Below, piece by piece: positions 5,239 to 61,976 of a DNA stretch of 64,000 bases. The translations under genes were made by a program, and so were the position numbers. The notes beneath the pieces were generated by a model. It was not told where the DNA came from, did no database searches, and saw only the letters and a list, made by a program, of their open reading frames with translations. Source of the stretch: Bacteroidetes bacterium RIFCSPLOWO2_12_FULL_35_15. GTDB taxonomy: Bacteria > Bacteroidota > Bacteroidia > 2-12-FULL-35-15. The stretch spans positions 12,241-76,240 of the forward strand of contig MEPB01000037.1 in the NCBI GenBank assembly GCA_001769385.1, written 5' to 3'. Position 1 is the stretch's first letter; each line of letters begins with the position of its first letter.

Positions 5239-5286
5239 TTAATCGGATTTTTTTCTGATGCGTTTGAATCTTTATGCAAAATGAAA

Positions 5287-6624: not shown

Positions 6625-6761
6625 AATTTGGAGTAATTTTTGAGCCTACGAAAATACAAAAAAAAATGACATTTTTAATTATGACCGAAAACATTGAAAA
6701 TGTTTAAGTTTTTGGAAATTAGTTTGTTGGAAACTTAAATTATGAAACCCTATATCTTTCA

Positions 6762-6856
6762 TCTCTTCCATACATTTAAAATGTCCTTTCGGGCATTTAT
6801 CATAACCAATTATAGAGCAGGGACGACAGGAAAGATTTTTTACTTCTACCATTTTT
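6762..6856 (-). pseudogene. Orphan 3'-end fragment of a GT9 heptosyltransferase gene (near-identical copy of 9904-9993)
   Basis: ~90 bp identical except one base to the 3' end of the GT9 gene at 9878-10870. Reverse frame reads KMVEVKNLSCRPCSIIGYDKCPKGHFKCMEEM..., against ...KMVEVKNLSCRPCSKIGYDKCPKGHFKCMVDIDENLF in the intact gene. Confidence 0.75.
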
Positions 6857-26891: not shown

Positions 26892-27419
26892 ATGACTGAT
26901 GAGCAAATAGTAAATGGCTGTATTCAAAAGAATGCTCTTGCTCAGGAATATTTGTATAAAAAGTTTTCACGAAAAATGATGGGCGTTTGCCTTCGTTATT
27001 CAGATAGTCAGGAGGAGGGAGAGGATGTTTTACAAAACGGGTTTATAAGTGTTTTTGAAAATATTGGATCATTTAAAGGAACGGGGTCGTTGGAAGGGTG
27101 GATTCGGAAAATAATGACCAATACAGCACTGACAAATATTAGAAAGAATAAAAAATTAAAACAAAATATAGCTTTGGATAGTGTAGAGTTCGCACTCCCC
27201 TCGGCCAATTATACGAATGAAAATTTTGCGGTAAAGGATTTGTTAAAAATAATACAAACATTACCACCTGGTTTTAGAACAGTTTTTAACTTGTATGCGA
27301 TCGAAGGATATTCCCATAAAGAAATAGGTGATATGTTGGATATTTCTGAGGGAACTTCAAAATCGCAATATTCAAGAGCAAAAGCACATTTACAAAAAAT
27401 AATATCAATTGACAGATAG
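26892..27419 (+). CDS. ECF-family RNA polymerase sigma-70 factor
   Basis: Region 2 (YKKFSRKMMGVCLRYSDSQEEGEDVLQNGFI) and region 4 HTH (YSHKEIGDMLDISEGTSKSQYSRAK). Confidence 0.85.
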   Translation: MTDEQIVNGCIQKNALAQEYLYKKFSRKMMGVCLRYSDSQEEGEDVLQNGFISVFENIGSFKGTGSLEGWIRKIMTNTALTNIRKNKKLKQNIALDSVEFALPSANYTNENFAVKDLLKIIQTLPPGFRTVFNLYAIEGYSHKEIGDMLDISEGTSKSQYSRAKAHLQKIISIDR

Positions 27420-28426
27420 TGATCAACATGAAAAATAACAATTTAGAAGATTTATTTAAAGATTCGTTCGAAAATTTTGAAGCGGATATTAATCCAAACG
27501 TTTGGAAAAATATTAAGGCTGGAATAAAAGAAGGGGATTCAGGAGTTGTAGCAAAGTTCAAATTTAACAAAATTGGCGTTAATGCTATTGTTGCCATAGT
27601 TTCGTCTATTGCCGCAATTATAGGAACTGTTTTGGTGATGAATATTGGATCTGATGACAGCAGCAGATCAAAACCGGTTAATACCACCCACGATGCCGAA
27701 TTAAACAAAACGGTTATTTCACCACAACAATCAGCAACAACTGAAAAAGGAGCTCCTGTTAAGGAAATTGAGCAAAAAGCGAACTGTTCGAACATTCAAA
27801 ATACAAATAATTCAGGAATAACAACTGATCAAATAACGAGTGAGAATATCGGAAATATCAAAAAAGACAAACAAAAGATCAACTCTATTATCAACACATT
27901 GTCTGAAGAACCAGTTGCATTAATCAATGCTTATCCAATTGGTGGAACAGTTCCTTTATTTGTGAATTTATCAAACAAAGGAATTGGAAAGACAAATAAA
28001 TGGACATTTAATGATGGGAAAAAATCAACCACATCAGCCAACCCTGTCCATGTTTTTGAAAATCCGGGTGTTTATACCGTTATTCTTACGTCTGTAAGTG
28101 CGGAAGGGAAAACATCAATTGACAGTGTGGAGGTGGAAGTAACAGGCAATTCATCTATTTCTCCAATTCCAACAGAGTTTTCGCCTAATGGTGATGGAAT
28201 AAATGATGAGTTTGTTTTTAAAAGCCAGTTTATTGCCAATATGAGCGCTGTTATATTTGATAAAAACGGCAATATTATTTATACATGGGAAGGTGAAGGA
28301 AAATGGGATGGAAAGGATTCAAAAGAAAAAAATGCGAAAATCGGGACCTATTTTTATTTGATTTCAGCGGTAGGTGTTGACGGAAAGAAGTTTGAACAAA
28401 AAGGATCAATAAATCTTACCAGATAA
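27419..28426 (+). CDS. Anti-sigma-like single-pass membrane protein with periplasmic PKD-like domain and gliding-motility-type (T9SS type B) C-terminal domain
   Basis: Start overlaps the sigma gene stop by 1 nt. ~50-aa N-terminal segment, TM (AIVAIVSSIAAIIGTVLVM), Ser/Thr-rich linker, PKD-like segment (PVHVFENPGVYTVILTSVSAEG). C-terminal FSPNGDGINDEF...GTYFYLISAVG block typical of the CHU_C/T9SS type B CTD. Confidence 0.65.
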   Translation: MINMKNNNLEDLFKDSFENFEADINPNVWKNIKAGIKEGDSGVVAKFKFNKIGVNAIVAIVSSIAAIIGTVLVMNIGSDDSSRSKPVNTTHDAELNKTVISPQQSATTEKGAPVKEIEQKANCSNIQNTNNSGITTDQITSENIGNIKKDKQKINSIINTLSEEPVALINAYPIGGTVPLFVNLSNKGIGKTNKWTFNDGKKSTTSANPVHVFENPGVYTVILTSVSAEGKTSIDSVEVEVTGNSSISPIPTEFSPNGDGINDEFVFKSQFIANMSAVIFDKNGNIIYTWEGEGKWDGKDSKEKNAKIGTYFYLISAVGVDGKKFEQKGSINLTR

Positions 28427-28565: not shown

Positions 28566-31500
28566 GTGAAAAAAAATAAAATTTGTATTTTCTTTTTATT
28601 GGGATTGTTGCTAACTCAAAACCTAAGGGCATCACATATCGCAGGCGGTGATTTGAGTTATGTTTGTTTAGGAAATAACCAATATCAGATCAATCTTAAT
28701 TTGTTTGTTGATTGTTTGGGTTTTGACCCTGGAGCTAACCAAACCATAACTTTTACAAGTTCGTGTGGAGGAAGTGCAACTGCAACGGTAAATGTAATTA
28801 ATCCCGGTGGTACAGAAATTTCTCAATTATGTCCTGCACAAATAAATAATAGTACATGTAATGGAGGAACCCTGCCCGGCATGTGGGGTTTCCATTTCAC
28901 CGGGACAGTAACACTCGCTCCTGCATGTGATACCTGGACAATGAGCTGGACCACCTGTTGCAGAAATGCAGCAATTTTAAATCTTCAGACTCCTGATGTT
29001 TTCGGAAGTTATATTCAAGCGACCCTCAATAGTGTCACGGCTCCATGTAATAGCTCTCCATCATTTACTTCTCAGCCAATCCCTTATGTTTGCGTTAATC
29101 AGCAAGTAAATTATAATTATGGTGTTGTTGAAACAGATGGTGATTCTATGTATTATTCATTGATAAATGCAATGGATGCAAATGCTGTTAATCTTGCTTA
29201 TGTTGCAGGGTATTCAGCTAGTTCTCCAATTCCCGGAATCACCATTAATCCGATAACAGGGGTGCTTACTTTTACCCCAACCATGCTTGGGAATTTTGTA
29301 GTAGTTGTTTTGGTTCAGGAATATGATAGCAATGGAAATTTGATTGGAACAGTTATGCGTGACATTCAGTTTATCGTACAAAGTTGTTCCAATATTGTTC
29401 CTGATCCTACTGCCGGTGCAATTTCAAATTTAACAGGAACAGCTGTTCAAACAAGTCCTTTTTCTATTGAAATGTGCGAGGGATCTTCTTTTACATTTGA
29501 TGCTACTTATACTGATGCAAATGCAGGAGATGTTTTAACATTGGTTTCAAATATTTCAACTGTACTGGCCGGGTCAACACTTACCACAACAGGAGCAAAC
29601 CCGCTTGTAGCAACTATAACCTGGACTGCTCCTGGCGGAAGTGCAAATACAAATACCAGTTTTAGTGTTACCGTTAATGACGGAGCCTGCCCTGTTATGG
29701 GGCAACAAACATTTGTTTATGACATTAATGTTCAGCCTCGAACTCTAGCGGGCCCCGACCATATTATTTGTGGAATACAAAGTGTAACATTAACCGGAAC
29801 AGGTGGAAGCCTTTTTACATGGAACGTAATAAGTGGTCCTGCAATGATTGTTGGAACAAATTTCTCTTGCAATCCTTGTGCAAATCCTATTGCATCTCCA
29901 AATGCTACCACCACTTATGAAGTGGTAAGTAATCTGAGCGGAACCTGCGTAAATAAAGATACAGTTACTGTTACTGTTGTTCCCGATTTTTCTTTTGTCA
30001 CCATTCAGACTACTGATACCTTGTGTTTGCAGCAACTTGTGCAGTTAAATATTACAGGTTCTCCTGCCGGAGCATATACCTATTTATGGTCTCCACCAAC
30101 GTATCTGAATAATATTACAATTGCCAATCCTACAGCAAATGTTACTGTTCCGGGAACCTATAGCTATTATGTTGATATTACAAGCCCTTTGGGTTGCCTT
30201 AAAAAAGATACTGCAACTATAACAATTCTCCCGGACATCAGAACCCGAGTTGGACCGGATACAGTATTGTGTATTTCCCAAAGTGCCCAATTAAATGCGA
30301 CAAGTGGAAGTTCTTTTTCCTGGAATGTATTAAGCGGTACTCCAATGGTTGTTGGAACAAATTTTTCCTGTAACCCATGCGCCAATCCTATTGCTACACC
30401 AACTGTAACAACGGTATATCAGGTAACGAGCAATTTAAACGGTACTTGTATAAATAAAGACACCATTACTGTTACTGTTGTTCCAAATTTTTCCTATGTA
30501 ACAAGTCAGAGTTCAACGAGCTCATGCTTGTTGCAGCCAATACAATTTAATGCAGTGGGTTCTCCTGCCGGGACATATACCTATGACTGGTCTCCTTCCA
30601 CGTATCTAAACAATACAACAATCGCAGACCCTGTTGCAACAATTTCTTCTCCCGGAACCTATACGTATTATGTGAATATAACAAGTCCTTTGGGTTGCGT
30701 GAAAATTGATACTGCTTCCATTACAATAACTGCAAGTTATCCTCCAAATCCGGTTTCAACTGTAACGGATACGGTTGTTTGTGTAGGCGATACAGTTTTA
30801 CTTGGGGTAACTTTTGGAACTTCAGTTCCATCAGTATGTGGTACAAATCCGATAGGTTGTAGTGCTGCTTTAGTTGGAACTGTGGGAACAGGAACAACCT
30901 CCAACTCTACTACCAGCTATCCCGCACCTTACGGAAATTGGTACACTTCTGCAAAGCATCAGTTTTTGTTTAAAGCTTCAGAGTTAATTGCTGCAGGAAT
31001 TACCGGAGGAAAAATTGATCAGATCGATTTTAATGTCTCTACAATTACTGGAATAACAGCATATCACGAATATACAATAAATATGGGTTGTACAAATCTG
31101 ACTACTTTAACGAATTGGGTGACCGGCTTATCAAATGTTTACACTCCAAAAACCTATAATGTTGCAAGTGGATGGAACGGCCATGTTTTTGATCTGGCTT
31201 ATGAATGGGACGGAATATCAAATGTGGTAGTTGAAATTTGTTTTAGTGAAATGCCACCAACATCAAATTACACTAACAATTGTTCTTCCCCTTATACAAC
31301 AACAACATTTACATCTTGTTTATATTCAATAAGTGATGTTACACCACAATGTCCAAATCTGGGTCTGCCAACTACAACTAATAACAGACCAAATGTTCGT
31401 TTTCATTATTGTGGATCTGCTCCAGACTCAACAAAATATACATACACCTGGATGCCGCTAAGCGGAGTTTTTAATCCGCATACACAAACTACAGGTGCGA

Positions 31501-32363
31501 TAGTTAGCGGGAATACAAATTATTATGTTATTGTTACTGATACAGTTAGTGGTTGTTTAGATACTGCATTTATTAATATTTATGCCGGCACTAACTCTAT
31601 TAATGTGAATGCGGGGAATGATGTAACTATTTGCCCGGGTGCATCTACAACATTACAGGCAACAGGCGCATCTCAATTTATATGGAGCCCGCCTACAGCA
31701 TTATCAAGCACAACGATTGCAAATCCTAGCGCAAATCCAACAACTACAATTACTTATACCGTTACAGGGACCAGCCAATGTGTTTCGGGGCAGGGAATGG
31801 ATAGTGTAAAAGTTATTGTTCCTATTGTTTCTCCTTTAACAATATCTGCAGGGGATAATCAGGAGGTTTGTGTTTCAACAGTATATGGATTGAATGTTGC
31901 TTCCTCAGGAGGTTATGGAAATAACACCTATGCCTGGACCTTATTATCAGGTGCAGCTATTGATCCAATAAATAATGCGAACACAGCAAATGCTTCGGTG
32001 ACTCCGACATTAGAAGGAACAAATACATATCAGATTACAACAATAGATGCATGTGGTAATTCAGTTACAGATACAGTTCTCGTTAATGTTCTACCGGATT
32101 GCGATCTGGAAATTCCAAATATTTTTACACCGAATGGCGATGGGGAAAATGATTATTTTATTGTGAATGCGAAGCATCTCAACTCTTATTCAATTGTTAT
32201 TTATAATCGCTGGGGGAAAAAGGTATTTGAGTCAAACGATGTTAATCAAAGTTGGGACGGAAAAAATAATGAGGACGGAACTTATTTTTACATCATTAAA
32301 GCGGAAGGAATTGATAAAATGCTTTATGATAAAAAAGGCTATCTTCAACGATTAGGAAAATAA
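28566..32363 (+). CDS. Large secreted T9SS type B cargo protein (1265 aa) with Ig-like tandem repeats and gliding-motility-associated C-terminal domain
   Basis: Signal peptide. Two ~161-aa tandem repeats. C-terminal FTPNGDGENDYF...GTYFYIIKAEG CTD. A mid domain (YGNWYTSAKHQFLFKASELIAAG...) resembles one in the M43 protease at 7729. Confidence 0.75.
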   Translation: MKKNKICIFFLLGLLLTQNLRASHIAGGDLSYVCLGNNQYQINLNLFVDCLGFDPGANQTITFTSSCGGSATATVNVINPGGTEISQLCPAQINNSTCNGGTLPGMWGFHFTGTVTLAPACDTWTMSWTTCCRNAAILNLQTPDVFGSYIQATLNSVTAPCNSSPSFTSQPIPYVCVNQQVNYNYGVVETDGDSMYYSLINAMDANAVNLAYVAGYSASSPIPGITINPITGVLTFTPTMLGNFVVVVLVQEYDSNGNLIGTVMRDIQFIVQSCSNIVPDPTAGAISNLTGTAVQTSPFSIEMCEGSSFTFDATYTDANAGDVLTLVSNISTVLAGSTLTTTGANPLVATITWTAPGGSANTNTSFSVTVNDGACPVMGQQTFVYDINVQPRTLAGPDHIICGIQSVTLTGTGGSLFTWNVISGPAMIVGTNFSCNPCANPIASPNATTTYEVVSNLSGTCVNKDTVTVTVVPDFSFVTIQTTDTLCLQQLVQLNITGSPAGAYTYLWSPPTYLNNITIANPTANVTVPGTYSYYVDITSPLGCLKKDTATITILPDIRTRVGPDTVLCISQSAQLNATSGSSFSWNVLSGTPMVVGTNFSCNPCANPIATPTVTTVYQVTSNLNGTCINKDTITVTVVPNFSYVTSQSSTSSCLLQPIQFNAVGSPAGTYTYDWSPSTYLNNTTIADPVATISSPGTYTYYVNITSPLGCVKIDTASITITASYPPNPVSTVTDTVVCVGDTVLLGVTFGTSVPSVCGTNPIGCSAALVGTVGTGTTSNSTTSYPAPYGNWYTSAKHQFLFKASELIAAGITGGKIDQIDFNVSTITGITAYHEYTINMGCTNLTTLTNWVTGLSNVYTPKTYNVASGWNGHVFDLAYEWDGISNVVVEICFSEMPPTSNYTNNCSSPYTTTTFTSCLYSISDVTPQCPNLGLPTTTNNRPNVRFHYCGSAPDSTKYTYTWMPLSGVFNPHTQTTGAIVSGNTNYYVIVTDTVSGCLDTAFINIYAGTNSINVNAGNDVTICPGASTTLQATGASQFIWSPPTALSSTTIANPSANPTTTITYTVTGTSQCVSGQGMDSVKVIVPIVSPLTISAGDNQEVCVSTVYGLNVASSGGYGNNTYAWTLLSGAAIDPINNANTANASVTPTLEGTNTYQITTIDACGNSVTDTVLVNVLPDCDLEIPNIFTPNGDGENDYFIVNAKHLNSYSIVIYNRWGKKVFESNDVNQSWDGKNNEDGTYFYIIKAEGIDKMLYDKKGYLQRLGK
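29740..30725 (+). repeat. Intragenic tandem duplication (2 x ~483 bp) in the large cargo gene
   Basis: Protein repeats RTLAGPD...TGTGGSLFTWNVISGPAMIVGTNFSCNPCANPIASP... and RTRVGPD...ATSGSSFSWNVLSGTPMVVGTNFSCNPCANPIATP.... The nucleotide copies have diverged (~80% identity by eye). Confidence 0.6.
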
Positions 32364-32398: not shown

Positions 32399-34120
<1,722 letters not shown>

Positions 34121-34241: not shown

Positions 34242-37200
34242 GTGTTTTTAAACTTTTTTATGAATAAACTTTTTCACGCTTTCTTATTAGTTTTCTTTGC
34301 TTTAATAATTCAGCAAAAATTGGAGGCGCAGTACAATGGCTATCCAATAAGAAATTATACTTCAAAGGAAAACAAAGGTTTTACTCAAAACTGGGTTTGT
34401 GTACAGGATAAAAGGGGTGTGCTTTATTTTGGAAATAGCAGTGTTATTTTAGAATATGATGGAAAAGTATGGCGAAAAATACCCGTTACAAGCAGTGTGG
34501 CAATACGGTCGTTATACATTGATAGTTTAGGAACTATTTATGTTGGTTCAGTTGGCGATTTCGGCCTTTTAGTTCCTCAAAAAAATGGCGAACTTGTTTT
34601 TCAATCCTTAACAAAAGGACTAACAGAAAAAGAAAAAAACTTTTCAGATGTATGGAAAATCCACAATAATAAAGGGGCTGTAATTTTTCAATCAAGCGAG
34701 AATTTATTTTTTCTGAAGGATAACAAAATAACTACGATCAGTCCTGAATTTTCTTTTGCTTCCCTTTCTTTTATTGCAAATGATGATTTTTATATCCGGC
34801 AACGCATGGTTGGTCTGATGAAATTAGAAGGTAATAAACTTCATCTGATTCCTGAAGGTGAAAAGCTGAAAGATGATGGAATATTGGGAGTTATTCCATT
34901 TCCAAAACATTCAAAAAATAAATATCTGGTGCTTACCGGTGATAATGGATTTTTTTTAATTGATGATATTAAAAAAAATATAACACCTGTTTTGTCAACT
35001 TCAGCAAAACAGTTGAATGATATTGGAGTACTGGGAATGAACTGGTTTAATGATTCAACAATTTTTATAAACTCCCGTGGAGGTATTATTTCCCTGAATC
35101 AAAAACTGGAGCTGCAAAAAATTATAAATAAAAGCGATGGATTAAATGATGAATCAATTGCAAATATGTTTGTTGATAAACAAAAAGAATTATGGCTATG
35201 TACAAATAATGGTATTAGTAAAATATCTATCAATTCACCACTTTACTTTTACAATAATTCCTCCGGATTAAAAGGCAACATATTTAAAATTTCTATTTAT
35301 AATAATAAAATATTTGTAGGAACTACTGCAGGTATATTTCAGGCAGAATTAAACAACCAGAATAAAAGCAGCACCGCTGAAAAATTGATTTTTAAGAATA
35401 TTGAAGGAACCTATTTTGAGGTATGGGATTTTAATCAAAATAAAAATCAATTGTTAGCAGCAACAAGTGATGGAGTTTTTGAAATAGCCAATAATAAAGC
35501 AAATAGAATAACGAAAGCCTATTCAAATATTATTTTTAATTCGGTAAATAGCGAAAATAGAATGTATGTAGGAGAAAAAGATGGACTGAAAATTCTTGAA
35601 AAAAATAAAAGTTTAAAATGGGAAGTAAAACATTTTCTTGATTTCCCAACAGATGATATTGTAAGTATTGTTGAAATACCCAATGATTCAATCGATCCAA
35701 AGGAAGTTGTTTTGTGGATGACTACAAGAAATAAGGGTGCAATGAAAGTATCATTTGATGGAACATTTAATTATAAACTGACAAGATACGATACTACAAG
35801 AGGTTTACCCAATGAATTAATAAATCTGGAGATATATAATGGTAAAGTATATTTCTGTAATGCTGTTGGTTCATTTGTCTATGATAAAAACAAAATATCC
35901 GCATTTACTCCCGCTCTTAATTGGGGTACCGGAAATATATTTTTATATGATAAAAACAAAGATGAGGGAAAGAAAAAGTGTTTTACAGAAATTCCGATGA
36001 ATTCTATTTGGAATGAAAAGGAAACACTAATTTCTGATGATTCTATTTCAGGCGATGGAAAAAATTTATTAAATGCTTTGATGGTGATGGAAGAAAAGGG
36101 ATACACGTATTATCAGAATAATCCGGATATCTTATGGATTGGACTTTCTGATATCCTTATCAGGTATGATTCGCATGTTAAAAAAGATTATCAAACAGCA
36201 TTTAATACCTTGATCAGGAAAGTATCGATAGGAAAAGATTCAACTGTTTTTTTTGGCACCTATTCCAATCCAATTAGCGAAACAAAAAGAATTGTTTCAT
36301 TAGATCAGGGAAGCGACCAGTTTCTTCAACTGCCTTATAAATATAATAGTTTGACATTTGAATATGCTGCGCCATTTTTTGAACGTGAGGAACAGACTCA
36401 ATTCAGTTACAAACTAATCGGCTTTGATACAGCATGGTCTGCATGGTCAATAAGTTCGTCTAAACAATTTACTAATTTATTCGAAGGGGAATACATATTT
36501 ATTGTAAAAGCTAAAAGTGTTTATCAAAACGAAAGCCGGGTTGCTCACTATAAATTTACAATTCTCCCGCCTTGGTATAGAACTTTTTGGGCTTATATAT
36601 TTTATTTATTGATATTCGTTTTATTAATTGTTATTGCCGTAAAAATTAGTGTAAGGCGATTAACCCTTGCCAAAATTAAACTGGAAAAAATTGTGACAGA
36701 ACGCACGACAGAAGTAGTAAAACAAAAAGAAGAACTTCAGCAAAAAAGTGCAATCATTGAAATCGCTTATGATGATATTAAATCAAGTATTAATTATGCC
36801 AAACGTATTCAGGAATCTATTCTGCCATTAAAGAATGAAATAAAAAAATCATTCCCTGAGTCATTTGTTTTATTTAAACCCCGTGATATTGTGAGTGGCG
36901 ATTTTTATTGGTTTTCAAAACATGAGAATAGGAATATAATTGCTTGCGTTGATTGCACCGGACATGGCGTTCCGGGGGCTTTTATGAGCATGATCGGCAA
37001 CACCATACTGAACGAAATAATAAATGAAAAAGGAATAGAAACACCTTCAGAAATATTAAATTTATTGCATGAACGTGTTCGTCAATCTCTTAAACAGGAT
37101 CTGGAAAACGCTGAAACGAGGGATGGAATGGATATATCGCTTTGCGTTATTGATACTTTAAATAGCAAAATACAGTATGCCGGAGCAAACCGGCCCTTGT

Positions 37201-37529
37201 ACATTATCCGCAAAAACAAGCTGGAAGAAATAAAACCAAACAAAATGCCAATTGGGGGTTATCAGATGGAGGAGGACAGGCGCTTTCTTAATCATGAAAT
37301 TTCATTGAATAGTGGTGATACAATTTATTTAACTACTGATGGCTATGCCGATCAGTTTGGCGGAGAAAAAGGGAAGAAATTTATGGTGAAACGGTTTCAC
37401 CAACTGTTAATGGAGATTCAAGATCAAACCATGGAACATCAGGCTGAAACGCTTAGATCTACTATTGAAAAATGGCAAGGGTCGTTAGAACAAGTAGATG
37501 ATATACTTTTGATCGGTATAAAAGTTTAG
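34242..37529 (+). CDS. Membrane-anchored PP2C/SpoIIE-family protein phosphatase with periplasmic beta-propeller (two-component-regulator-propeller-like) and Y_Y_Y-like sensor domains
   Basis: Signal peptide, ~750-aa periplasmic region, Y_Y_Y-like segment just before the TM (WYRTFWAYIFYLLIFVLLIVIAV), coiled coil. C-terminal PP2C block (DIVSGDFYW...CTGHGVPGAFMSM...DGMD...TDGYADQFGG...DDILLIG). Confidence 0.8.
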   Translation: MFLNFFMNKLFHAFLLVFFALIIQQKLEAQYNGYPIRNYTSKENKGFTQNWVCVQDKRGVLYFGNSSVILEYDGKVWRKIPVTSSVAIRSLYIDSLGTIYVGSVGDFGLLVPQKNGELVFQSLTKGLTEKEKNFSDVWKIHNNKGAVIFQSSENLFFLKDNKITTISPEFSFASLSFIANDDFYIRQRMVGLMKLEGNKLHLIPEGEKLKDDGILGVIPFPKHSKNKYLVLTGDNGFFLIDDIKKNITPVLSTSAKQLNDIGVLGMNWFNDSTIFINSRGGIISLNQKLELQKIINKSDGLNDESIANMFVDKQKELWLCTNNGISKISINSPLYFYNNSSGLKGNIFKISIYNNKIFVGTTAGIFQAELNNQNKSSTAEKLIFKNIEGTYFEVWDFNQNKNQLLAATSDGVFEIANNKANRITKAYSNIIFNSVNSENRMYVGEKDGLKILEKNKSLKWEVKHFLDFPTDDIVSIVEIPNDSIDPKEVVLWMTTRNKGAMKVSFDGTFNYKLTRYDTTRGLPNELINLEIYNGKVYFCNAVGSFVYDKNKISAFTPALNWGTGNIFLYDKNKDEGKKKCFTEIPMNSIWNEKETLISDDSISGDGKNLLNALMVMEEKGYTYYQNNPDILWIGLSDILIRYDSHVKKDYQTAFNTLIRKVSIGKDSTVFFGTYSNPISETKRIVSLDQGSDQFLQLPYKYNSLTFEYAAPFFEREEQTQFSYKLIGFDTAWSAWSISSSKQFTNLFEGEYIFIVKAKSVYQNESRVAHYKFTILPPWYRTFWAYIFYLLIFVLLIVIAVKISVRRLTLAKIKLEKIVTERTTEVVKQKEELQQKSAIIEIAYDDIKSSINYAKRIQESILPLKNEIKKSFPESFVLFKPRDIVSGDFYWFSKHENRNIIACVDCTGHGVPGAFMSMIGNTILNEIINEKGIETPSEILNLLHERVRQSLKQDLENAETRDGMDISLCVIDTLNSKIQYAGANRPLYIIRKNKLEEIKPNKMPIGGYQMEEDRRFLNHEISLNSGDTIYLTTDGYADQFGGEKGKKFMVKRFHQLLMEIQDQTMEHQAETLRSTIEKWQGSLEQVDDILLIGIKV

Positions 37530-37530
37530 C

Positions 37531-37560
37531 AAAAAGCCCACAATCTGTGGGCTTTTTCTT
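37531..37560. terminator. Bidirectional rho-independent terminator
   Basis: Hairpin agcccaca-atct-gtgggct flanked by A and T tracts (aaaaagcccacaatctgtgggctttttc). Confidence 0.7.
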
Positions 37561-37561
37561 T

Positions 37562-37771
37562 TTATGCATTTTTAATCTCTGTAATGATCACTTTTCCGGT
37601 AGGGGTAGTTACTTTAACGTAAACAAATCCATCCCCGATTTTTCTATCAATGGTAGCACCCGGTTGGAAAAATTCCCATTTGTTGGCTGTACCTGCTTCG
37701 GTTAAACGTCCGGAATCACTGTCATAGATATCTGCAAGTGTTCCGCTTTTGTCTTCTCTAATTGCTGCCAT
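37562..37771 (-). CDS. Small hypothetical protein (69 aa)
   Basis: ORF directly bounded by the terminator hairpin. No hydrophobic segments. No recognised motif. Confidence 0.4.
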   Translation of the reverse strand: MAAIREDKSGTLADIYDSDSGRLTEAGTANKWEFFQPGATIDRKIGDGFVYVKVTTPTGKVIITEIKNA

Positions 37772-37913
37772 AAATTTTTTTTATAGGTTAATATTAATTT
37801 TATTAAGCTAAGTAACTAAATATTAATTAGAACAACAAACTTTAAAACGATTTCCTCCGTAAGATTTTATAACCATATTTTGATATATTTGTCTTACTAA
37901 ATAATACTACTCC

Positions 37914-39893
37914 ATGGTACGTTTCGTTTTTATCTTTCTCTTAGCGATCTGTTTAACATTTCCGGGTTTTGGAAATAATAAATTAGATTCATTAATAAAC
38001 CAAATCGAAACATTTAAAGAAGATACCTCAAAGGTTAATGAGATATTGAAAGTATGTGCTCTTATCCGAGAAAATGACCCTGACAGAACGATTGAGATCG
38101 CTGAGAAAGGGATTAAACTTTCGCAAAACCTGGATTATAAATTAGGCTTAGCAAAGTGTATTCAAAATGTGGGTATTGCATATCATAACAAAGGCAATTA
38201 TGAAAAGGCGGTAGATAATTATCTGAAAGCATTAAAATATTTTGATGAACTAAAAGATGACAATGGTATAGGAACAACTTATAATTTGTTGGGGATCGTA
38301 TGTCGTTTACAAGGTAATTATAAACAGGCAATTGAATATTATAAAAAAGCGCTTCAATTGTCAAAGGAAAGCGGGGATAAAAAAAGTTATGCCGGTACAC
38401 TTTTAAATATTGGAAATGTGTTTTATTTTTCTAATGATTTTGAATCTGCAATTGATTATTATCAACAAGCAAATGCAATATTTCTTGAATTAGGAAAAAA
38501 AAATGAAGCTGCAACTTGTCTGCAAAATATTGGAAGTATTTATTTTTCGCTAAGTAAATTTGATCTTGCTCTTGAAAACTATACAAAAGTATTGGATGTA
38601 AGACTTGGAGATAATGATCAATCGCTTATTGCTGTGGCTTTAAATAATATCGGGGAGGTTTATAAAGAGAAAGGAGATTTTCATAAAGCAATTGAATTTA
38701 TAAATAAGAGCATAATTATTTCTAAAAAAACTGATGCTAAAGAAACACTCCGGATTAATTACGAAAACATGTTAGATCTTTATTCTAAACAAGGAAATTA
38801 TAAAGAAGCCATCAACTATTTTAAATTAGTTTCAGATTTAAAAGACACTATTTTTAATATCGAAAGCAATAAGCATTTGCAAGGACTTTCGGTAAAATAT
38901 GAATCTGAAAAAAAAGAATCTGAAAATAAAATTCTTCGTTCGGAAACAGAACGGCAAAAAATTATTAATTGGTCAATAAGTACAGGATTGTTTTTATTGG
39001 CAGTGCTAACATTTTTCATTTTCAGAGGATACAAAAACAAGAAACGTGCACACCTGATCATCAGCGATCAAAAAAAAGAAGTGGAACGGCAAAAATTAAT
39101 TGTTGAAAATCAAAAAGAATTAGTTGAAGAAAAAAACAAAGAAGTATTGGATAGTATTTATTATGCCCGTAGGATCCAACGGGCACTTTTAACAAGTGAA
39201 GGATATATTAAAAAACATTTGAATGCCGATTTTTTTATTCTCTTTAAACCAAAAGATATTGTTAGCGGTGATTTTTATTGGGCCGTGGAGCACAATAATT
39301 TATTTTTTATAATGACCGCAGATTGTACAGGGCATGGTGTTCCGGGAGCATTCATGAGTATGTTGGGGATTAATTTTTTAAATGAGATTATTATTGAACG
39401 GAAAATAAAAAATCCTGCTCTTATATTGGATATTTTACGCGAAGAGATCATTCGTAACTTGAATCCGGAAGGTGCCGAAGAAGCAAAAGATGGAATGGAT
39501 GCCGTAATATGTGTGTACGATATGCAAAACAAAAGGATGGATTTTGCTGCGGCCAACAATCCTTTGTGGTTAAATAGAAATGGAGTGATAACTGAATACA
39601 AAGCTGATAAAATGCCTGTGGGAAAATATTATGAAAATGCCTTGGGTTTTACCAAACAAAGTATTGAATTAGAAGCCGGCGATACCATTTACACCTTTAC
39701 AGATGGTTATGCTGATCAGTTTGGTGGCGACAAAGGAAAAAAATTTAAATATAAACCATTGAAAGAAATGTTCCTGGAAAACAGCAACAGATCAATGAAA
39801 GAGCAAAAAGATATATTTGACAAAACATTCGAAAGCTGGCGTGATAAATTAGAACAAGTGGATGATATTTTAGTGATTGGAATAAAAGTTTAA
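37914..39893 (+). CDS. Membrane-anchored PP2C/SpoIIE phosphatase with periplasmic TPR sensor domain
   Basis: Signal peptide, ~8 TPR-like units (GNYEKAVDNYLKALKYF...), TM (WSISTGLFLLAVLTFFIF). C-terminal PP2C block homologous to the 34242 and 39895 proteins. Confidence 0.8.
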   Translation: MVRFVFIFLLAICLTFPGFGNNKLDSLINQIETFKEDTSKVNEILKVCALIRENDPDRTIEIAEKGIKLSQNLDYKLGLAKCIQNVGIAYHNKGNYEKAVDNYLKALKYFDELKDDNGIGTTYNLLGIVCRLQGNYKQAIEYYKKALQLSKESGDKKSYAGTLLNIGNVFYFSNDFESAIDYYQQANAIFLELGKKNEAATCLQNIGSIYFSLSKFDLALENYTKVLDVRLGDNDQSLIAVALNNIGEVYKEKGDFHKAIEFINKSIIISKKTDAKETLRINYENMLDLYSKQGNYKEAINYFKLVSDLKDTIFNIESNKHLQGLSVKYESEKKESENKILRSETERQKIINWSISTGLFLLAVLTFFIFRGYKNKKRAHLIISDQKKEVERQKLIVENQKELVEEKNKEVLDSIYYARRIQRALLTSEGYIKKHLNADFFILFKPKDIVSGDFYWAVEHNNLFFIMTADCTGHGVPGAFMSMLGINFLNEIIIERKIKNPALILDILREEIIRNLNPEGAEEAKDGMDAVICVYDMQNKRMDFAAANNPLWLNRNGVITEYKADKMPVGKYYENALGFTKQSIELEAGDTIYTFTDGYADQFGGDKGKKFKYKPLKEMFLENSNRSMKEQKDIFDKTFESWRDKLEQVDDILVIGIKV

Positions 39894-39894
39894 T

Positions 39895-42015
39895 ATGAAA
39901 ATGAAAAAGACAATCAATTATTTTTTTTCTTACCGCTTGATCATACTTTGTTTTGCAATAGGGGGCAGCGGTAAACTGTTGCAAGCTCAAAACTCAAATA
40001 AAATTGCAGATAGCTTAATTGTTTTGCTGAAATCAGCAACAGATACAACACGTATAAATATATTGAATGAAATCGCTTATGAATATATTTCTGATGCTCC
40101 TGAAACAGCAACAAAATATGCAAATGAAGCTTTGCAGCTGGCGCAGAATGTTGATTTTTTAATGGGAGAAATAAATGCAAATAATAATTTGGGATTGGCT
40201 CAGTATTACAGCAATAATTATGATGCTGCACTTGACTATTACAATAAGGTGCTTTTGTTAGCTAGGAAAAATGGGGATAAATTAAAAGAAGCGAGCGCCA
40301 TAAATAATATTGGATTGGTATATGATGATAAAGCAGACTATACTAAAGCACTGGAAAATTATTTAAAGGCATTACAAATAGTAGAAAAAATAAATGGCAA
40401 ACGACTTATTGCCAGCACCACTAATAATATAGCATTGATTTATCAAAATCAGGGAAAATATGAACAAGCACTCGCTTTTCATCACAAAGCATTAAAAATA
40501 AAGGAAGAAATTAAAAATACAAAAGGGGTAGGAAACTCCTTGCATAATATTGCCCTGGTCTATAAACTAAAAGGTGATTACGAAAAAAGTTTAGAATATA
40601 ATTTTAAAGCTTTAGCCATTCGGGAATCAGTGAATGATATGAACGGGAAAGCTCTTACATTAAATAATATTGGTAGCGTATATGAATCGATGGAAGAATT
40701 TGATAAAGCGCGTACCTATTTTGAGGAGTCCCTTGAAATACGAAAACAATTAAAGGACCAATATGGTTTAGCGGTTACTATATTTAGCCTGGGCTCCAAC
40801 TATTTTAGCCGGAAACAATATGAAAAAGGTTTTGAATACATGCAGGAAGCGATCGAAATATCAAAAAAAATCGGGGCAAATGAGTTACTTAAAAAAGAAT
40901 ACCAAACAATGGCAGAAGTGTTTGCTGACCGGCAAAATTTTTCAAAAGCATACGAATATCAAAAACTATATATTAACGTAAAAGATTCTATTTTAAATGC
41001 TGAAACAGAAAAACAAATTAATGAACTACAAACAAAATACGAAACAGAGAAAAAGCAAAAGGAAATTGAACTGATCACTAAAAATAATGAGATCCAGGCG
41101 CTCGAACTTAATAAAAATAAATTATGGATATGGATGCTCGTTGTAGCTGTTTTATTAGTGTTTACGCTTGCAGGATTGTTTTACAACAGGTCTAAATTAA
41201 AACAAAAGGCAAATGTATTGCTAGAGCATCAAAACACGGAAATAACGCAGCAGAAAAAAGAAATTACCGATAGTATCAATTATGCAAAACGCATACAGGA
41301 ATCTATTCTTCCACCATCTGAACATTGGAAAAAATTACTGCCGGATAGTTTTATTTTTTATCGTCCCAAAGATATTGTCAGCGGTGATTTTTATTGGATA
41401 GAACAAAAAAACCAAACTGTTTGTTTTGCCGCTGTGGATTGCACCGGACATGGTGTTCCGGGAGCCCTCATGTCGGTAGTTGGATTTAATTTACTGACAC
41501 AAGCCGTGAACGAAATGAATTTAACAAAACCTTCAGAAATACTAAAACATTTAGATGCAGGGGTTACAAAAACATTACGACAATCAAATGACGGAAAAGG
41601 TGTGAAGGATGGAATGGATCTTTCCTTGTGTTCATTAAATAAGGAAACAAATGAATTGCAATATGCCGGAGCATTTAATTCATTGTACTACATTAATAAT
41701 GGAGTATTTATTGAAATAAAAGCGGATAAATTTCCAATAGGTGTTAATCTTGATGGTATTGTGGATAATTATACCAATCATACTATTCAACTTCAAAAAG
41801 GAGATGCTGTTTATTTATACAGTGATGGTTATGCCGACCAGTTTGGAGGAGCAAAAGGAAAAAAATTCAAATACAACCAATTGAAAAACTTGCTTGTTTC
41901 AATTTCAGAAAAGCCAATTGAAGAACAGCAAAAATTAATTGCAGATGCTTTTGATAATTGGAAAGGGGAGCTGGAACAAATAGATGATGTGTTGATAATC
42001 GGGGTGAGGGTGTAA
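39895..42015 (+). CDS. Membrane-anchored PP2C/SpoIIE phosphatase with periplasmic TPR sensor domain (third paralog)
   Basis: Starts 2 nt after the previous stop. TPR array, TM (LWIWMLVVAVLLVFTLAGLFY), PP2C block (DIVSGDFYWIEQ...CTGHGVPGALMSV...SDGYADQFGG). Confidence 0.8.
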   Translation: MKMKKTINYFFSYRLIILCFAIGGSGKLLQAQNSNKIADSLIVLLKSATDTTRINILNEIAYEYISDAPETATKYANEALQLAQNVDFLMGEINANNNLGLAQYYSNNYDAALDYYNKVLLLARKNGDKLKEASAINNIGLVYDDKADYTKALENYLKALQIVEKINGKRLIASTTNNIALIYQNQGKYEQALAFHHKALKIKEEIKNTKGVGNSLHNIALVYKLKGDYEKSLEYNFKALAIRESVNDMNGKALTLNNIGSVYESMEEFDKARTYFEESLEIRKQLKDQYGLAVTIFSLGSNYFSRKQYEKGFEYMQEAIEISKKIGANELLKKEYQTMAEVFADRQNFSKAYEYQKLYINVKDSILNAETEKQINELQTKYETEKKQKEIELITKNNEIQALELNKNKLWIWMLVVAVLLVFTLAGLFYNRSKLKQKANVLLEHQNTEITQQKKEITDSINYAKRIQESILPPSEHWKKLLPDSFIFYRPKDIVSGDFYWIEQKNQTVCFAAVDCTGHGVPGALMSVVGFNLLTQAVNEMNLTKPSEILKHLDAGVTKTLRQSNDGKGVKDGMDLSLCSLNKETNELQYAGAFNSLYYINNGVFIEIKADKFPIGVNLDGIVDNYTNHTIQLQKGDAVYLYSDGYADQFGGAKGKKFKYNQLKNLLVSISEKPIEEQQKLIADAFDNWKGELEQIDDVLIIGVRV

Positions 42016-42025: not shown

Positions 42026-45000
42026 CTAAAAATAAGCCCTCACTTGCGCACCACCTGTATGAATAATTTTTGTGCCTTCTGATTTACGTCCATCATACGT
42101 AATACTCAATTGCATATTGTTTGATAAATTACGCTGGTAAGCTAAGCCCCAGGTAATATTTTCTCCTGCTTTTAAGGCATCTAACATTTCAAAAGCGAGG
42201 GAGGTATTTTGACTTCCATTAAATTTAATTTGAATAAAATTGGCTTTTAAATTTAAACTTCCTTTTTGTAAAACATTGTATTTGATTTCAGCACCATAAT
42301 CTTGCAATATGGCAGTTTGTCCGCCAAATTCAGCTTTATTTTTTTTATCGGTGTATTTAAAAGAAACACTTACGCGGAAAGAAGTGTTGGGTTGATAACT
42401 AAATTTTGGCTCCAATTCATAATAGGAGATAGCATAATCTCTTGTGTTGAAATATGCTGATTTGCTTGATTTAACACCATTCTTGCCATCTAAGATCCAC
42501 GTTAATTGTTGCACAATGTTCCAACGTAAATGTGCTTCTTCATACGTGTTTTGGTGGGTGTCAAAGCCATTCACCAATAAAATTTTATTCCGGACATCCT
42601 GATAAGAAATATCAAGACCAAATACGGAGCTTAACTGGTTGATGAATAATGTATTTCTGAATGAAGAACTGAGTGTAATTAATGTGCTGTCATTTGTTTC
42701 TGATAAAAACGGATTGTATGCTTTTGTGAGATCGTCTTCATTTGATTTCCGATCCACACGATACGTTGTTTGATTTGCAAATCGGGAAATAAATTTCCGG
42801 AATCCTGTTTTAGTTGCCCATAATGCGGATGGTTTTAACATCAGCATTTCAGAAAACTGATTGCTATACGTTTTTACATAATCACTGGTAGGCGTGTAAA
42901 CTTTAATATAAATTGCCTGATCTTGAAAAGCTGCTATTTCAAACTCGTTTAATTCTTTTATTCCATTGTTGTTATAATCATTCCATGTGTAAACACCTTG
43001 TCCGGGTGCGACAGCAATGTACGAGAATTCTTTTTTTACTTCCAACCCCGAACCAATTTCATAAAAAGTATTGGAGTAAATTATTCCTTTCCATAATTTA
43101 AAATTGTATTCAATTCTTGAAACTAAGGAGTTGTCTGTTAAAGCAGAATCTCCAATTTTTAATCTTCGATAAGCAGCATTTATTTTTAATTGATTGTTTG
43201 GATTTTTAAGAAGTTCTAAAAAGGCGCCATAATTTTCAGCAAATGCGGCTTCATTTAATTTGGGTTTCCCGGAATTGTTTTTCACATTATAATCTGTTCG
43301 TTGCTTGTAATTTATTCCATAATGATTTTTTGTAGAATCTGAATTTTGTGCATACGCTTGCCATTCCCAGAATTGATAACTGTTGGAGAGGATTGAATCT
43401 TTATTGTTTAAGGCGAATTTGTTTTGCTCAAACTCATCTTTTAATCCAAGAGTCAGCCATTTTATTTTTTGAGAAACGCCACTTTTGTGCCTGTAAAAAT
43501 TAGTGTTGGTAGTGCTAGCTGAATTTAATAAACTTCCATCGTATAAAATTGCAACCCCTTTAACAGCAAGGTTAATGTTGGCATTGTGTTTTGTTGCATT
43601 GTATCTTGTTCCTTCCAAAAGCGCATTGAATCTGTATATTGCTGCTCCAATTTCTTTTTTAGACACACCTATAGCAGCTCCTACAACATGTTGATCATCA
43701 GCAAGAGTCGTGTTTCCACGATTCCAGTCTCTTTCAAATTCGATGCTACGGTAACGTTCGACCGGAGAAAAGTATTTCTGAACATATTCGTAATTTAAAT
43801 TAGTAAGCAGTGTAAGTGGACTATAGGTTGAGTCTTTCGCTTTAGTTCGGTTAAACGGGGAAGCATTATCAAAATTCATTTTCAAAGCATAACCAACATC
43901 ATCATTGCTATTCGCAGATGAAAATGTATTAATATCATTATTGCTCGCAGCAGCTTCTATTGATAATTTGCTGTATTTGTTGAATAAATAGTCAGCACCA
44001 ACGGTGAGCATTTGTTTTTTCTTAGGTGCTATCAATTGGATCACAGGCTCGTAGCTCCCGTGTAGCGTATCGCCCGTTATACTTGGTGCAACCCACTGAA
44101 AAACTTTTCCGTTTGCACTTGAAGTAATTTGATTGTAATGGCCTTTTCCTACTCCAACATTACTGAAGGTGACACGAAAATGAGCGGTGCTATCCGTCCT
44201 GTAAACAAAAATATTCTTATAGATAGTTGCTCCAATTAAGGTATCTTTTTTTTGATATAATACTTCACTGTTCGAAAAAGGGATACTGTCATAGCTTGGA
44301 CTGATAGCAAGTGATAAAGTATCGCCAACATCAGATAATATTTTTTTCTGAGCTGTTGTCAGATCTTGTTGCAAGGGTTGGTTTTTGCTGTCTTGTTCAG
44401 AATATACATTTACATGTAATTTTAATTTCCCTTGTTCATAATCATTTCCAAAATGCACCAGGGAACGTGCATAATTTTTATCGGAATATTGAAATTCCAC
44501 AACAATGCGTTTATCTTTTGTGATAAGTTGTTTAGCTGTAAATGTAAGTTCTGAAGTATTATAATTAATTACATAATCATTCTCTTGCCCTCTGTCCATA
44601 AGTCGTCCATCGACATACACTTTTTCTGTTCCGGATAATACACTGATGTACGTTTCGTTTTCTGCGCCATGTAATCGATAGGGTCCTTGATTACTCTCCA
44701 CACCTTGAATTTGATTTCGTGCAAATTTTCCTCTCGAAACTGCCGCACTCAAACTGGTTTTGTAAAGTCCTTGTTTGGAAATATCTTTATTACTTCCATT
44801 AATTTTTTGTGTCGTTGAAAAACTTACTCCTTGTGCTTTTTTATTGAAATTCATAAAATAAGACCTGGGCCGGGTCAATTGAAAATCACCTGCAATCAAT
44901 TTTGTATTCATAGTTGATAATTGAATAAATACTTTATCAAACTCTTGCAATTGCTGAGTATTTCCTTCGGGTTGAATAGGAATATTATTATCTGTTGCCG

Positions 45001-45550
45001 CTAATAATATATCAATATTATTACTCAAATGTCCGGATAGTTGCAAATTTAAATTTGAATTTACTACTACATCCTGATTATTTCCAAACGAAATTCCACG
45101 CGAAATACTTCCGCTTTTATTCAAACCATCCATTTTAAATATGTCATCATTTTTTGATTCGATATTATAACTGAAAGGGTTAGTTTTTCCGAATAAATCT
45201 GCCTTTATTCGGTTTACATCTTTATGTTTTGTTTCTTGTGAAAATAGATAGGGAAATGTTTTGTAGGAAGAAAAAATAATATCTGCTTTTATATTTTCTT
45301 CAAGTAATTTTTTTCGATTTAAAATGACCAACCCCTCTGCATAATTTATTTTATAATAGGAGGTATCAAGTAAAGTTCCATTTATGGTGGAAAGTTTTAT
45401 TGAACCCGGAACAATACTTAAGGAGTCGAGTTTAACAGTATCAGAAATTACCGAAAAGGATTTAGTTCGATTATTGACGGTGTTTTGCGCAAATCCGCCA
45501 ATACACATAAATAGTATAGCTAAGAGCAATATTTTTTTTCGAACCATCAC
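42026..45550 (-). CDS. Large (1174 aa) predicted outer-membrane beta-barrel protein of unknown function
   Basis: Signal peptide. Alternating amphipathic beta-strand-like composition rich in N/S/T/Y. C-terminal ...VRAYF, an aromatic terminal residue typical of OM beta-barrels. Confidence 0.55.
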   Translation of the reverse strand: MMVRKKILLLAILFMCIGGFAQNTVNNRTKSFSVISDTVKLDSLSIVPGSIKLSTINGTLLDTSYYKINYAEGLVILNRKKLLEENIKADIIFSSYKTFPYLFSQETKHKDVNRIKADLFGKTNPFSYNIESKNDDIFKMDGLNKSGSISRGISFGNNQDVVVNSNLNLQLSGHLSNNIDILLAATDNNIPIQPEGNTQQLQEFDKVFIQLSTMNTKLIAGDFQLTRPRSYFMNFNKKAQGVSFSTTQKINGSNKDISKQGLYKTSLSAAVSRGKFARNQIQGVESNQGPYRLHGAENETYISVLSGTEKVYVDGRLMDRGQENDYVINYNTSELTFTAKQLITKDKRIVVEFQYSDKNYARSLVHFGNDYEQGKLKLHVNVYSEQDSKNQPLQQDLTTAQKKILSDVGDTLSLAISPSYDSIPFSNSEVLYQKKDTLIGATIYKNIFVYRTDSTAHFRVTFSNVGVGKGHYNQITSSANGKVFQWVAPSITGDTLHGSYEPVIQLIAPKKKQMLTVGADYLFNKYSKLSIEAAASNNDINTFSSANSNDDVGYALKMNFDNASPFNRTKAKDSTYSPLTLLTNLNYEYVQKYFSPVERYRSIEFERDWNRGNTTLADDQHVVGAAIGVSKKEIGAAIYRFNALLEGTRYNATKHNANINLAVKGVAILYDGSLLNSASTTNTNFYRHKSGVSQKIKWLTLGLKDEFEQNKFALNNKDSILSNSYQFWEWQAYAQNSDSTKNHYGINYKQRTDYNVKNNSGKPKLNEAAFAENYGAFLELLKNPNNQLKINAAYRRLKIGDSALTDNSLVSRIEYNFKLWKGIIYSNTFYEIGSGLEVKKEFSYIAVAPGQGVYTWNDYNNNGIKELNEFEIAAFQDQAIYIKVYTPTSDYVKTYSNQFSEMLMLKPSALWATKTGFRKFISRFANQTTYRVDRKSNEDDLTKAYNPFLSETNDSTLITLSSSFRNTLFINQLSSVFGLDISYQDVRNKILLVNGFDTHQNTYEEAHLRWNIVQQLTWILDGKNGVKSSKSAYFNTRDYAISYYELEPKFSYQPNTSFRVSVSFKYTDKKNKAEFGGQTAILQDYGAEIKYNVLQKGSLNLKANFIQIKFNGSQNTSLAFEMLDALKAGENITWGLAYQRNLSNNMQLSITYDGRKSEGTKIIHTGGAQVRAYF

Positions 45551-59400: not shown

Positions 59401-59415
59401 CGAGAAAGAAAAATT

Positions 59416-60318: not shown

Positions 60319-60324
60319 ACAGTA

Positions 60325-61974: not shown

Positions 61975-61976
61975 TC

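Follow-up and report, generated by a model that had tools for sequence, protein, structure and literature searches.

To our knowledge, the SiaA/SiaB/SiaC switch has been studied in Pseudomonas only, where it governs a diguanylate cyclase and biofilm formation. This partner switch works on residue T68 of SiaC (PMC7647112, PMC8457831); the effector of unphosphorylated SiaC in Pseudomonas is the diguanylate cyclase SiaD (PMC8457831), and the PP2C domain of the phosphatase, SiaA, forms a homodimer (PMC7647112). More generally, control of the PP2C dimer through a helical linker has been proposed for the PPM phosphatases of bacteria (PMC12143880). On the sensory side, the periplasmic TPR domain of FimS is the sensing part of that protein (PMC11053733), and the sensor type of the hybrid two-component system (HTCS) proteins drives other outputs in glycan sensing, as in BguR, an HTCS-like one-component regulator (preprint, bioRxiv 10.64898/2026.01.10.698779). 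Here, we analyze a 64,000-nucleotide stretch of DNA (hereafter, the window) from the metagenome-assembled genome (MAG) of Bacteroidetes bacterium RIFCSPLOWO2_12_FULL_35_15, an uncultured groundwater member of the Bacteroidia (contig MEPB01000037.1, 317 kb), in which three intact open reading frames (ORFs) on the plus strand, denoted A, B, and C, encode proteins that combine sensors of these two types with a SiaA-like PP2C domain. With modest confidence, we conclude that A, B, and C are orphan paralogous single-pass sensor phosphatases of the SiaA subfamily, most likely feeding a partner switch of the SiaB/SiaC type. An initial annotation, made from the sequence alone, had described them as a same-strand triad of membrane-anchored PP2C/SpoIIE phosphatases, and the three ORFs were located as it described. 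The A protein is a 100% match to the NCBI entry 'hypothetical protein A3F72_10910' of the same MAG.

The C-termini of A, B, and C match the Pfam family SpoIIE (PF07228) with 86.4, 71.3, and 77.8 bits, respectively (cutoff, 25 bits), and the three proteins align to one another in BLASTP comparisons with E values of 1e-75 to 1e-130, so that their paralogy is beyond chance. The motifs quoted in the initial annotation, SGDFYW, DCTGHGVPGA, DGMD, (T/S)DGYADQFGG, and EQ(V/I)DD...(K/R)V, are indeed present in all three proteins, but its portrayal of the PP2C blocks as almost superimposable was too strong, with only 41-47% identity among them. Likewise, the assignment to PP2C/SpoIIE stands at the level of the PF07228 match, but the domains are not of the generic SpoIIE/STAS type. 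The SiaA model NF038263 was the sole PP2C model of NCBIfam that was matched (A, 223 bits; B, 169 bits; C, 207 bits; model positions about 385-657), and the structure of the P. aeruginosa SiaA PP2C domain (6K4E) was the sole strong match in the PDB for the single sequences (E values of 4e-41 for A, 3e-32 for B, and 5e-37 for C; 115-144 bits). A profile from an alignment of 40 sequences (A and 39 homologs) scored 244 bits against 6K4E versus 24-28 bits against SpoIIE, 20 bits against RssB, and 19 bits against Rv1364c, and no RsbU or RsbP chain was found among the PDB matches of this profile. Judged by these comparisons, the PP2C domains of A, B, and C belong to the SiaA subfamily.

The similarity to P. 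aeruginosa SiaA encompasses the membrane-anchored organization as a sensor phosphatase and the homologous PP2C domain together with the helices preceding it. Nevertheless, A, B, and C are not SiaA equivalogs by score, HAMP domain, or operon context. All three fall below the equivalog cutoff of NF038263 (700 bits), because the N-terminal half differs and only the linker and PP2C part aligns. Unlike SiaA, they carry propeller/Y_Y_Y or TPR sensors, with no Pfam match to HAMP between the membrane and the PP2C domain in any of the three, and they are encoded by three paralogs in a row, with no siaB, siaC, or siaD adjoining.

To assess the catalytic center, we aligned A, B, and C to the crystal sequence 6K4E, taking the list of metal-binding and active-site residues of SiaA from PMC7647112. 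All nine residues (D457, D474, C475, G477, D534, D600, G601, D604, and D653) are kept in each protein, being D881, D898, C899, G901, D958, D1027, G1028, D1031, and D1080 in A; D453, D470, C471, G473, D529, D597, G598, D601, and D650 in B; and D498, D515, C516, G518, D575, D644, G645, D648, and D697 in C. The ligands of all three metals, M1, M2, and M3, are retained, including the metal-binding aspartates, the loss of which the initial annotation had equated with pseudo-phosphatases. With their catalytic centers intact, A, B, and C are predicted to be catalytically competent phosphatases. They would not be expected to dephosphorylate tyrosine, as had also been suggested, since Ser and Thr are the residues on which PP2C enzymes act.

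The sensor of A is of the HTCS type by homology. Pfam detected Y_Y_Y and Reg_prop in A, and the A profile matched the periplasmic HTCS sensor 4A2L (E value of 1.5e-64), 3V9F (7e-57, over profile positions 38-763, that is, the entire sensor), and 3OTT and 3VA6 (about 1e-41). In the protein database, HTCS proteins, LuxR-type 'triple tyrosine' regulators, and an adenylate cyclase with the same sensor also align to 73-80% of A, at 27-33% identity. It is because the profile matches span the whole sensor and the database homologs carry the same sensor that we consider the assignment correct. Thus, A resembles the Bacteroides HTCS sensors (4A2L/4A2M, 3V9F, and 3OTT/3VA6) in that its sensor is homologous to theirs end to end and is followed, after Y_Y_Y, by a single transmembrane (TM) helix. 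Unlike in these proteins, however, the output is PP2C rather than HisKA/HATPase/REC/AraC or a LuxR helix-turn-helix (HTH): no HisKA, HATPase, receiver, or AraC-type HTH was detected in A by Pfam, the C-terminus being PP2C. Lacking the output part by which an HTCS is defined, A is not a member of that class.

In B and C, the sensor consists of a large TPR array identified by Pfam. The NCBIfam model of FimS aligns to the TPR and TM regions of B (102 bits) and C (153 bits) at model positions about 118-393; both scores lie below the FimS equivalog cutoff (600), and neither protein has a HisKA/HATPase domain. The layout of both is that of FimS, with the TPR array placed between an N-terminal hydrophobic segment and the TM helix. 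Hence, B and C resemble Porphyromonas gingivalis FimS in the TPR array and TM region but have PP2C instead of the histidine kinase. Aligned end to end, B and C share 33% identity, and their TPR modules are homologous and both FimS-like. The initial annotation was therefore right that the sensors differ between the propeller/Y_Y_Y type of A and the TPR type, but the two TPR arrays, which it took to be distinct, are of one type.

Pfam and hydropathy analyses bear out the proposed organization of each protein as a sensor, one TM helix, and PP2C. In A, B, and C alike, a signal-peptide-like hydrophobic N-terminus is followed by a large hydrophilic module, the TM helix, a linker, and PP2C. The TM helices are strongly hydrophobic (residues 776-794 in A, 350-370 in B, and 410-430 in C, as located by hydropathy) and are directly followed by a net positively charged cluster of Lys and Arg, and the linkers that connect the TM region to PP2C are 29-48 residues long and free of Pro and Gly. 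The signal peptides of A and C contain a cleavage-type site between A and Q (AQ site), which in the case of A is kept in the 40-sequence consensus. From the signal peptides, the AQ sites of A and C, and the positive charge after the TM helix, we predict an N-out/C-in topology with extracytoplasmic sensors for all three proteins, in agreement with the periplasmic location of the N-terminal modules proposed at the outset.

Given the SiaA-like nature of the PP2C domain, we searched for SiaB/SiaC-type partners beside homologs. In plasmid pPP7 of Persicobacter psychrovividus, genes annotated as 'SpoIIE family protein phosphatase', 'SiaB family protein kinase', and 'DUF1987 domain-containing protein' are consecutive. 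In a Cesiribacteraceae contig found with the Persicobacter DUF1987 seed, genes for a RegProp/Y_Y_Y-SpoIIE protein (1185 aa), a DUF6272 protein, and SiaC also follow one another. The proteobacterial counterpart, on an Azospirillum plasmid, includes siaC together with genes for a histidine kinase and a diguanylate cyclase. For a wider sample, GTDB representative genomes were scanned with a SiaC alignment, in which the Thr of the LTYFNT(S/A)S motif is invariant, and the resulting 80 loci, nearly all from Cytophagales or Bacteroidales by name with a few MAG records otherwise labeled, were subjected to ORF and BLAST analysis. SiaB/SiaC ORFs were found in 79 loci, with a SiaB-like gene detected in 69 of these, and in 36 of the 79, one or more SiaA-like PP2C genes are contiguous and on the same strand. 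Among these 36 loci, 24 have a TPR-type sensor, 6 a RegProp-type sensor, and 19 other sensors (HAMP/GAF/PAS, seven-transmembrane, and others, as read by eye), and 15 have more than one PP2C gene.

A recurrent operon in this set has the order [RegProp- or HAMP/GAF/PAS-PP2C]-SiaB-SiaC-[TPR-PP2C, about 650 aa]-SiaC. In three loci (L042, L044, and L047), the first gene of the operon encodes a RegProp-PP2C, so that both architectures seen in the window flank the genes for the kinase and the substrate. In L044, NCBIfam recognized the SiaB-family kinase (142 bits; cutoff, 85) and two SiaC-like proteins (85 and 67 bits), and the two PP2C proteins of this operon scored 178 and 195 bits against the SiaA model, no better than the 169-223 bits of those in the window. 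B and C align with the operon-embedded TPR-PP2C proteins over the full length, at 30-34% identity. Neighbor joining of the PP2C domains placed A, B, C, and their orthologs together with a SiaB/SiaC-linked RegProp-PP2C protein; this group is a sister to the linked TPR-PP2C clade, and SiaA of Pseudomonas and Azospirillum fall outside all Bacteroidota sequences. Thus, as with P. aeruginosa SiaA, the genes of Bacteroidota relatives of A, B, and C share operons with those for SiaB-family kinases and SiaC-type proteins. The substrates, which the initial annotation had left unnamed, can be narrowed, because the PP2C domains belong to the SiaA subfamily and the SiaB/SiaC pair is operon-linked to both architectures elsewhere in Bacteroidota, to a candidate phosphothreonine protein of the SiaC/DUF1987 type with a SiaB-family kinase. 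The modules also occur apart: 43 of the 79 SiaB/SiaC loci lack an adjacent PP2C gene, and phosphatase-only arrays recur (L001, L002, and L101), indicating that there are orphan modules on both sides. No conserved output gene was found beside the Bacteroidota SiaB/SiaC pairs, only lineage-specific synteny, and a search of the accessible literature found no functional study of these phosphatases or of SiaB/SiaC in Bacteroidota.

Several further arrangements were observed among the SiaB/SiaC loci. At least two SiaC paralogs are present in 26 of the 79 loci. SiaB and SiaC are fused into a single ORF in L024 (9359-10402) and L029 (347 and 329 aa, respectively), and in L103 and L104, an ORF with a double SiaB (375 aa) is convergent with a TPR-PP2C gene. 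In Cytophagales, a conserved five-gene cluster encodes an FN3-repeat protein, a TonB-dependent-receptor-like protein, a TPR-PP2C, a SiaB-family kinase, and SiaC (L041, L050, L081, and L096, at about 1.6-10.4 kb, and L008, 1-9782), a possible sign that a receptor in the outer membrane feeds the sensor phosphatase.

Mixed arrays of RegProp- and TPR-sensor phosphatases are a recurrent, maintained feature. In L001, the same ABC-F neighbor precedes four sensor phosphatases, two of the RegProp type flanked by one TPR protein on either side. The array of L002 comprises three genes, encoding a B-like protein without the PP2C core, a RegProp-PP2C, and a C-type TPR-PP2C, and an unrelated metagenome contig (L101) carries four in tandem (TPR, TPR, RegProp, TPR). 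Over the PP2C region, A is 72% identical to L001_RP2 and 71% to L002_RP, B is 60% identical to L001_TPR1, and C is 80% and 82% identical to L001_TPR2 and L002_TPR, respectively. Because these orthologs (60-82%) are closer than the paralogs (41-47%) and mixed arrays recur, the array appears to be maintained and the paralogy old; recent tandem duplication or gene conversion is ruled out by the same figures. The source MAG encodes at least one further RegProp-PP2C paralog elsewhere (P0039), and a metagenome scan with A retrieved 6 loci only, all distant. The B-like TPR gene of L002 (8725-9987) stops just after the SIQYAKRIQQSLLP helix and could be either a shortened sensor or a decaying copy. Beyond these close relatives, the family is large, with 22,330 cluster representatives (50% identity) at E <= 1e-30; the lengths of the top matches cluster at TPR-type and RegProp-type sizes, and the database labels include 'SpoIIE family protein phosphatase', 'RsbU', and 'two-component regulator propeller domain-containing protein'.

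Combining these results, the following mechanism can be proposed. The sensor of each protein would face the outside of the cytoplasmic membrane, where the double-propeller/Y_Y_Y module of A would probably bind a ligand resembling an oligosaccharide, as judged from HTCS of Bacteroides, where modules of this kind bind oligosaccharides, and from BguR, and the FimS-like TPR arrays of B and C would sense some partner. The state of the sensor would be transmitted through the one TM helix and the helical linker of 29-48 residues to the cytoplasmic PP2C domain, which is probably dimeric. The phosphatases would most likely strip phosphate from the conserved threonine of at least one SiaC-type (DUF1987, STAS-like) protein, phosphorylation of which a SiaB-family kinase would maintain, with the genes for kinase and substrate located outside the window, elsewhere in the genome. 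Unphosphorylated SiaC would then bind an effector. Because there are three or more sensors per genome, several envelope signals may converge on one partner switch.

Several observations weigh against this scheme. All window ORFs with a length of 150 aa or more were scanned against Pfam or NCBIfam, and the whole 64 kb was also searched by tblastn with SiaB and SiaC seeds; neither SiaB, SiaC, nor STAS was found in the window by the ORF scan, or by tblastn in the case of SiaB and SiaC, nor within 10 kb past its right end, in line with the initial annotation, which had noted no STAS protein or partner-switch kinase nearby. SiaB and SiaC are also missing beside the orthologous arrays (L001 and L002) and beside the paralog P0039, and none of the 80 retrieved SiaC loci is visibly from this uncultured Bacteroidia lineage, so the presence of a SiaB/SiaC pair in this organism is extrapolated from other Bacteroidota. 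The PP2C tree was obtained by neighbor joining without support values, and the coiled-coil character of the linker is significant in A only (p about 0.01 in a crude heptad test). Furthermore, a SiaA-like PP2C gene lies between cheA and cheB in L011 (P. psychrovividus pPP4, 4741-6783), and with one member embedded in a che cluster, the wiring of the subfamily is not uniform. Other searches were negative as well. No siaD diguanylate cyclase gene accompanies A-B-C within the 64-kb window, which therefore does not contain a Sia operon, and the window ORFs of at least 150 aa include no RsbW-like, Hanks kinase (Pkinase), or GGDEF genes. The neighborhoods of A orthologs and paralogs P0014, P0015, P0039, and P0040 contain no partner genes. 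A protein search with a Bacteroidota SiaC seed yielded 94 candidates, none named from the source MAG, which is also not represented among the 80 loci of the GTDB-genome scan.

If A, B, and C were instead classical RsbU/SpoIIE-like phosphatases, they would act on a STAS anti-anti-sigma factor (RsbV/SpoIIAA) and so free a sigma factor from its RsbW-type kinase, the gene for which would lie elsewhere. We consider this improbable, although it has some appeal: the Pfam family is SpoIIE (PF07228), the best-studied members of which act on STAS proteins, JGI labels homologs as 'serine phosphatase RsbU', one homolog belongs to a che cluster, and SiaC is itself structurally STAS-like (PMC8457831), making the two readings mechanistically close. 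Indeed, the likeness to RsbU, RsbP, and SpoIIE of Bacillus subtilis extends to the PPM fold, PF07228, partner-switch logic, and the proposed control of PP2C through an N-terminal helical linker and dimer (PMC12143880). However, the regulatory domains of these B. subtilis proteins are cytoplasmic or different and their own substrates are canonical STAS proteins, whereas A, B, and C carry propeller or TPR sensors at the N-terminus. Unlike in the RsbU/RsbV/RsbW switch, no STAS or RsbW gene was found among the window ORFs of at least 150 aa, and neither is found in nine annotated PP2C-centered loci, whereas SiaB/SiaC pairs repeatedly adjoin the homologs. The profile scores (244 bits on SiaA versus 19-28 bits on SpoIIE, RssB, and Rv1364c, with SpoIIE reaching at most 28) point in the same direction.

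The same PP2C chemistry and the lack of a dedicated partner gene nearby would also be compatible with general Ser/Thr phosphatases opposing Hanks-type kinases on many substrates, in the manner of PstP/PrpC. Yet the families of the latter, PF00481/PF13672, were unmatched, SpoIIE PF07228 and SiaA being the only matches, no Pkinase gene was found among the window ORFs of at least 150 aa, and the neighborhoods of homologs favor SiaB/SiaC, which renders this explanation quite unlikely. The least probable scenario, to which we attach hardly any weight, is that one or more of A, B, and C is a non-catalytic pseudo-phosphatase (an adaptor or scaffold, as RssB) or a decaying duplicate. Decaying copies are frequent in paralogous arrays, and the B-like gene of L002 does stop at the start of PP2C, but A, B, and C retain 9/9 of the SiaA metal and active-site residues, their ORFs are full-length, and their orthologs are conserved at 60-82% identity. 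We therefore retain the assignment to SiaA-subfamily sensor phosphatases that most likely act on a SiaB/SiaC-type switch.

The coordinates of the locus are compiled in Table 1. The upstream limit of the A ORF is a GTG at 34242, and the public gene calls use the ATG that opens gene A in the table. The initial annotation considered the three genes consecutive, which applies to B and C, but A is parted from B by an intrinsic terminator right after its stop codon and by a 69-aa ORF on the minus strand. This ORF is annotated as a gene by JGI on an identical contig, has no family match in Pfam, and has no homolog in the related phosphatase arrays. Because of the strong terminator and the convergent ORF, A is, by its sequence context, its own transcription unit, apart from B-C. 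The spacing between B and C, previously given as 2 nt, is 1 nt (TAA at 39891-39893, ATG at 39895), and because the gap is so short, B and C are probably co-transcribed as one operon. Upstream of B, TATATTTG fits TAnnTTTG, the consensus of the Bacteroidota -7 promoter box; support for a promoter at this site is weak, with about 1.2 occurrences of TAnnTTTG per kb across the window. A sigma-70 promoter scan of the region gave no signal over the shuffled background, the sigma-70 model being ill-suited to Bacteroidota, and an Rfam scan of the A-B-C region found no match.

Table 1. Features of the A-B-C locus, in window coordinates
Feature	Position	Strand	Description
ABC-F ATPase gene	32399-34075	-	upstream neighbor of A
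Gene A	34260-37529	+	1089 aa; HTCS-type sensor, TM helix, SiaA-type PP2C
A signal peptide, predicted	34260-34328	+	MNKLFHAFLLVFFALIIQQKLEA, then Q; hydropathy
A extracytoplasmic sensor, predicted	34329-36584	+	HTCS type; Reg_prop repeats (Pfam) and Y_Y_Y at 36384-36563
A TM helix, single	36585-36641	+	FWAYIFYLLIFVLLIVIAV, then KISVRRL (positive-inside)
A helical linker	36642-36893	+	includes the SINYAKRIQESILP helix, aligned to the N-terminal helices of the SiaA PP2C crystal construct
A PP2C catalytic core	36894-37526	+	aligned to SiaA
Intrinsic terminator, bidirectional	37531-37557		12-bp stem, A-run and T-run; ends A and the convergent small ORF
69-aa ORF between A and B	37562-37771	-	outside the phosphatase system; convergent with A
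Promoter box candidate	37884-37891	+	TATATTTG; fits the Bacteroidota -7 box TAnnTTTG, 23 nt before the B ATG
Gene B	37914-39893	+	659 aa; TPR sensor, TM helix, linker, PP2C
B signal peptide	37914-37973	+	
B TPR sensor	37974-38960	+	
B TM helix	38961-39023	+	
B linker	39024-39263	+	cytoplasmic side (predicted)
B PP2C core	39264-39890	+	cytoplasmic side (predicted)
Gene C	39895-42015	+	706 aa; TPR sensor, TM helix, linker, PP2C
C signal peptide	39895-39987	+	LLQA, then Q
C TPR sensor	39988-41121	+	
C TM helix	41122-41184	+	
C linker	41185-41379	+	cytoplasmic side (predicted)
C PP2C core	41380-42012	+	cytoplasmic side (predicted)
1174-aa ORF	42026-45550	-	downstream of C, converging with a 10-nt gap

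The 1174-aa ORF that converges with C has no match in Pfam, NCBIfam, or PADLOC, and no polysaccharide utilization locus adjoins A according to the Pfam scan of the window ORFs. Farther away, a gene for an extracytoplasmic function (ECF) sigma factor (26892-27419, plus strand) directly precedes genes for CHU_C/PKD type IX secretion cargo (27419-28426 and 28566-32363), and no anti-sigma gene was recognized. On the minus strand, a five-gene block (56895-62927) resembles a restriction-modification or defense island; its members are an N6/N4 DNA methylase (61977-62927), an HATPase_c_3 protein matching type II restriction endonuclease models (60325-61974), a 300-aa PP_RS20740-like protein, a 592-aa DndB/DpdB-like protein, and a 248-aa protein. 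This block recurs beside infB-nusA-rimP on three other contigs (L105-L107).

The PP2C family is very common, and the analysis adds a specific, testable hypothesis: a SiaC-type substrate for the sensor phosphatases. The findings suggest that 'SpoIIE family/RsbU' proteins of this kind would be better named SiaA-like sensor phosphatases. More tentatively, and with considerably less confidence than we place in the interpretation of the locus itself, one can envisage an envelope route, used by many Bacteroidota, in which arrays of HTCS-like glycan-type and TPR sensors on SiaA-type phosphatases act through a SiaB/SiaC switch on an effector other than the Pseudomonas diguanylate cyclase, with the window representing an 'input-only' node. 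Such a route may run alongside HTCS and the pairs of ECF and anti-sigma factors, with a many-to-one logic. The operons that combine RegProp-PP2C, SiaB, SiaC, and TPR-PP2C are present in cultured Cytophagales relatives and thus offer testable pairs. If true, the proposed scheme would connect carbohydrate or envelope sensing with Ser/Thr phosphorylation in a phylum whose known regulation is mainly by HTCS, SusR, and ECF factors.

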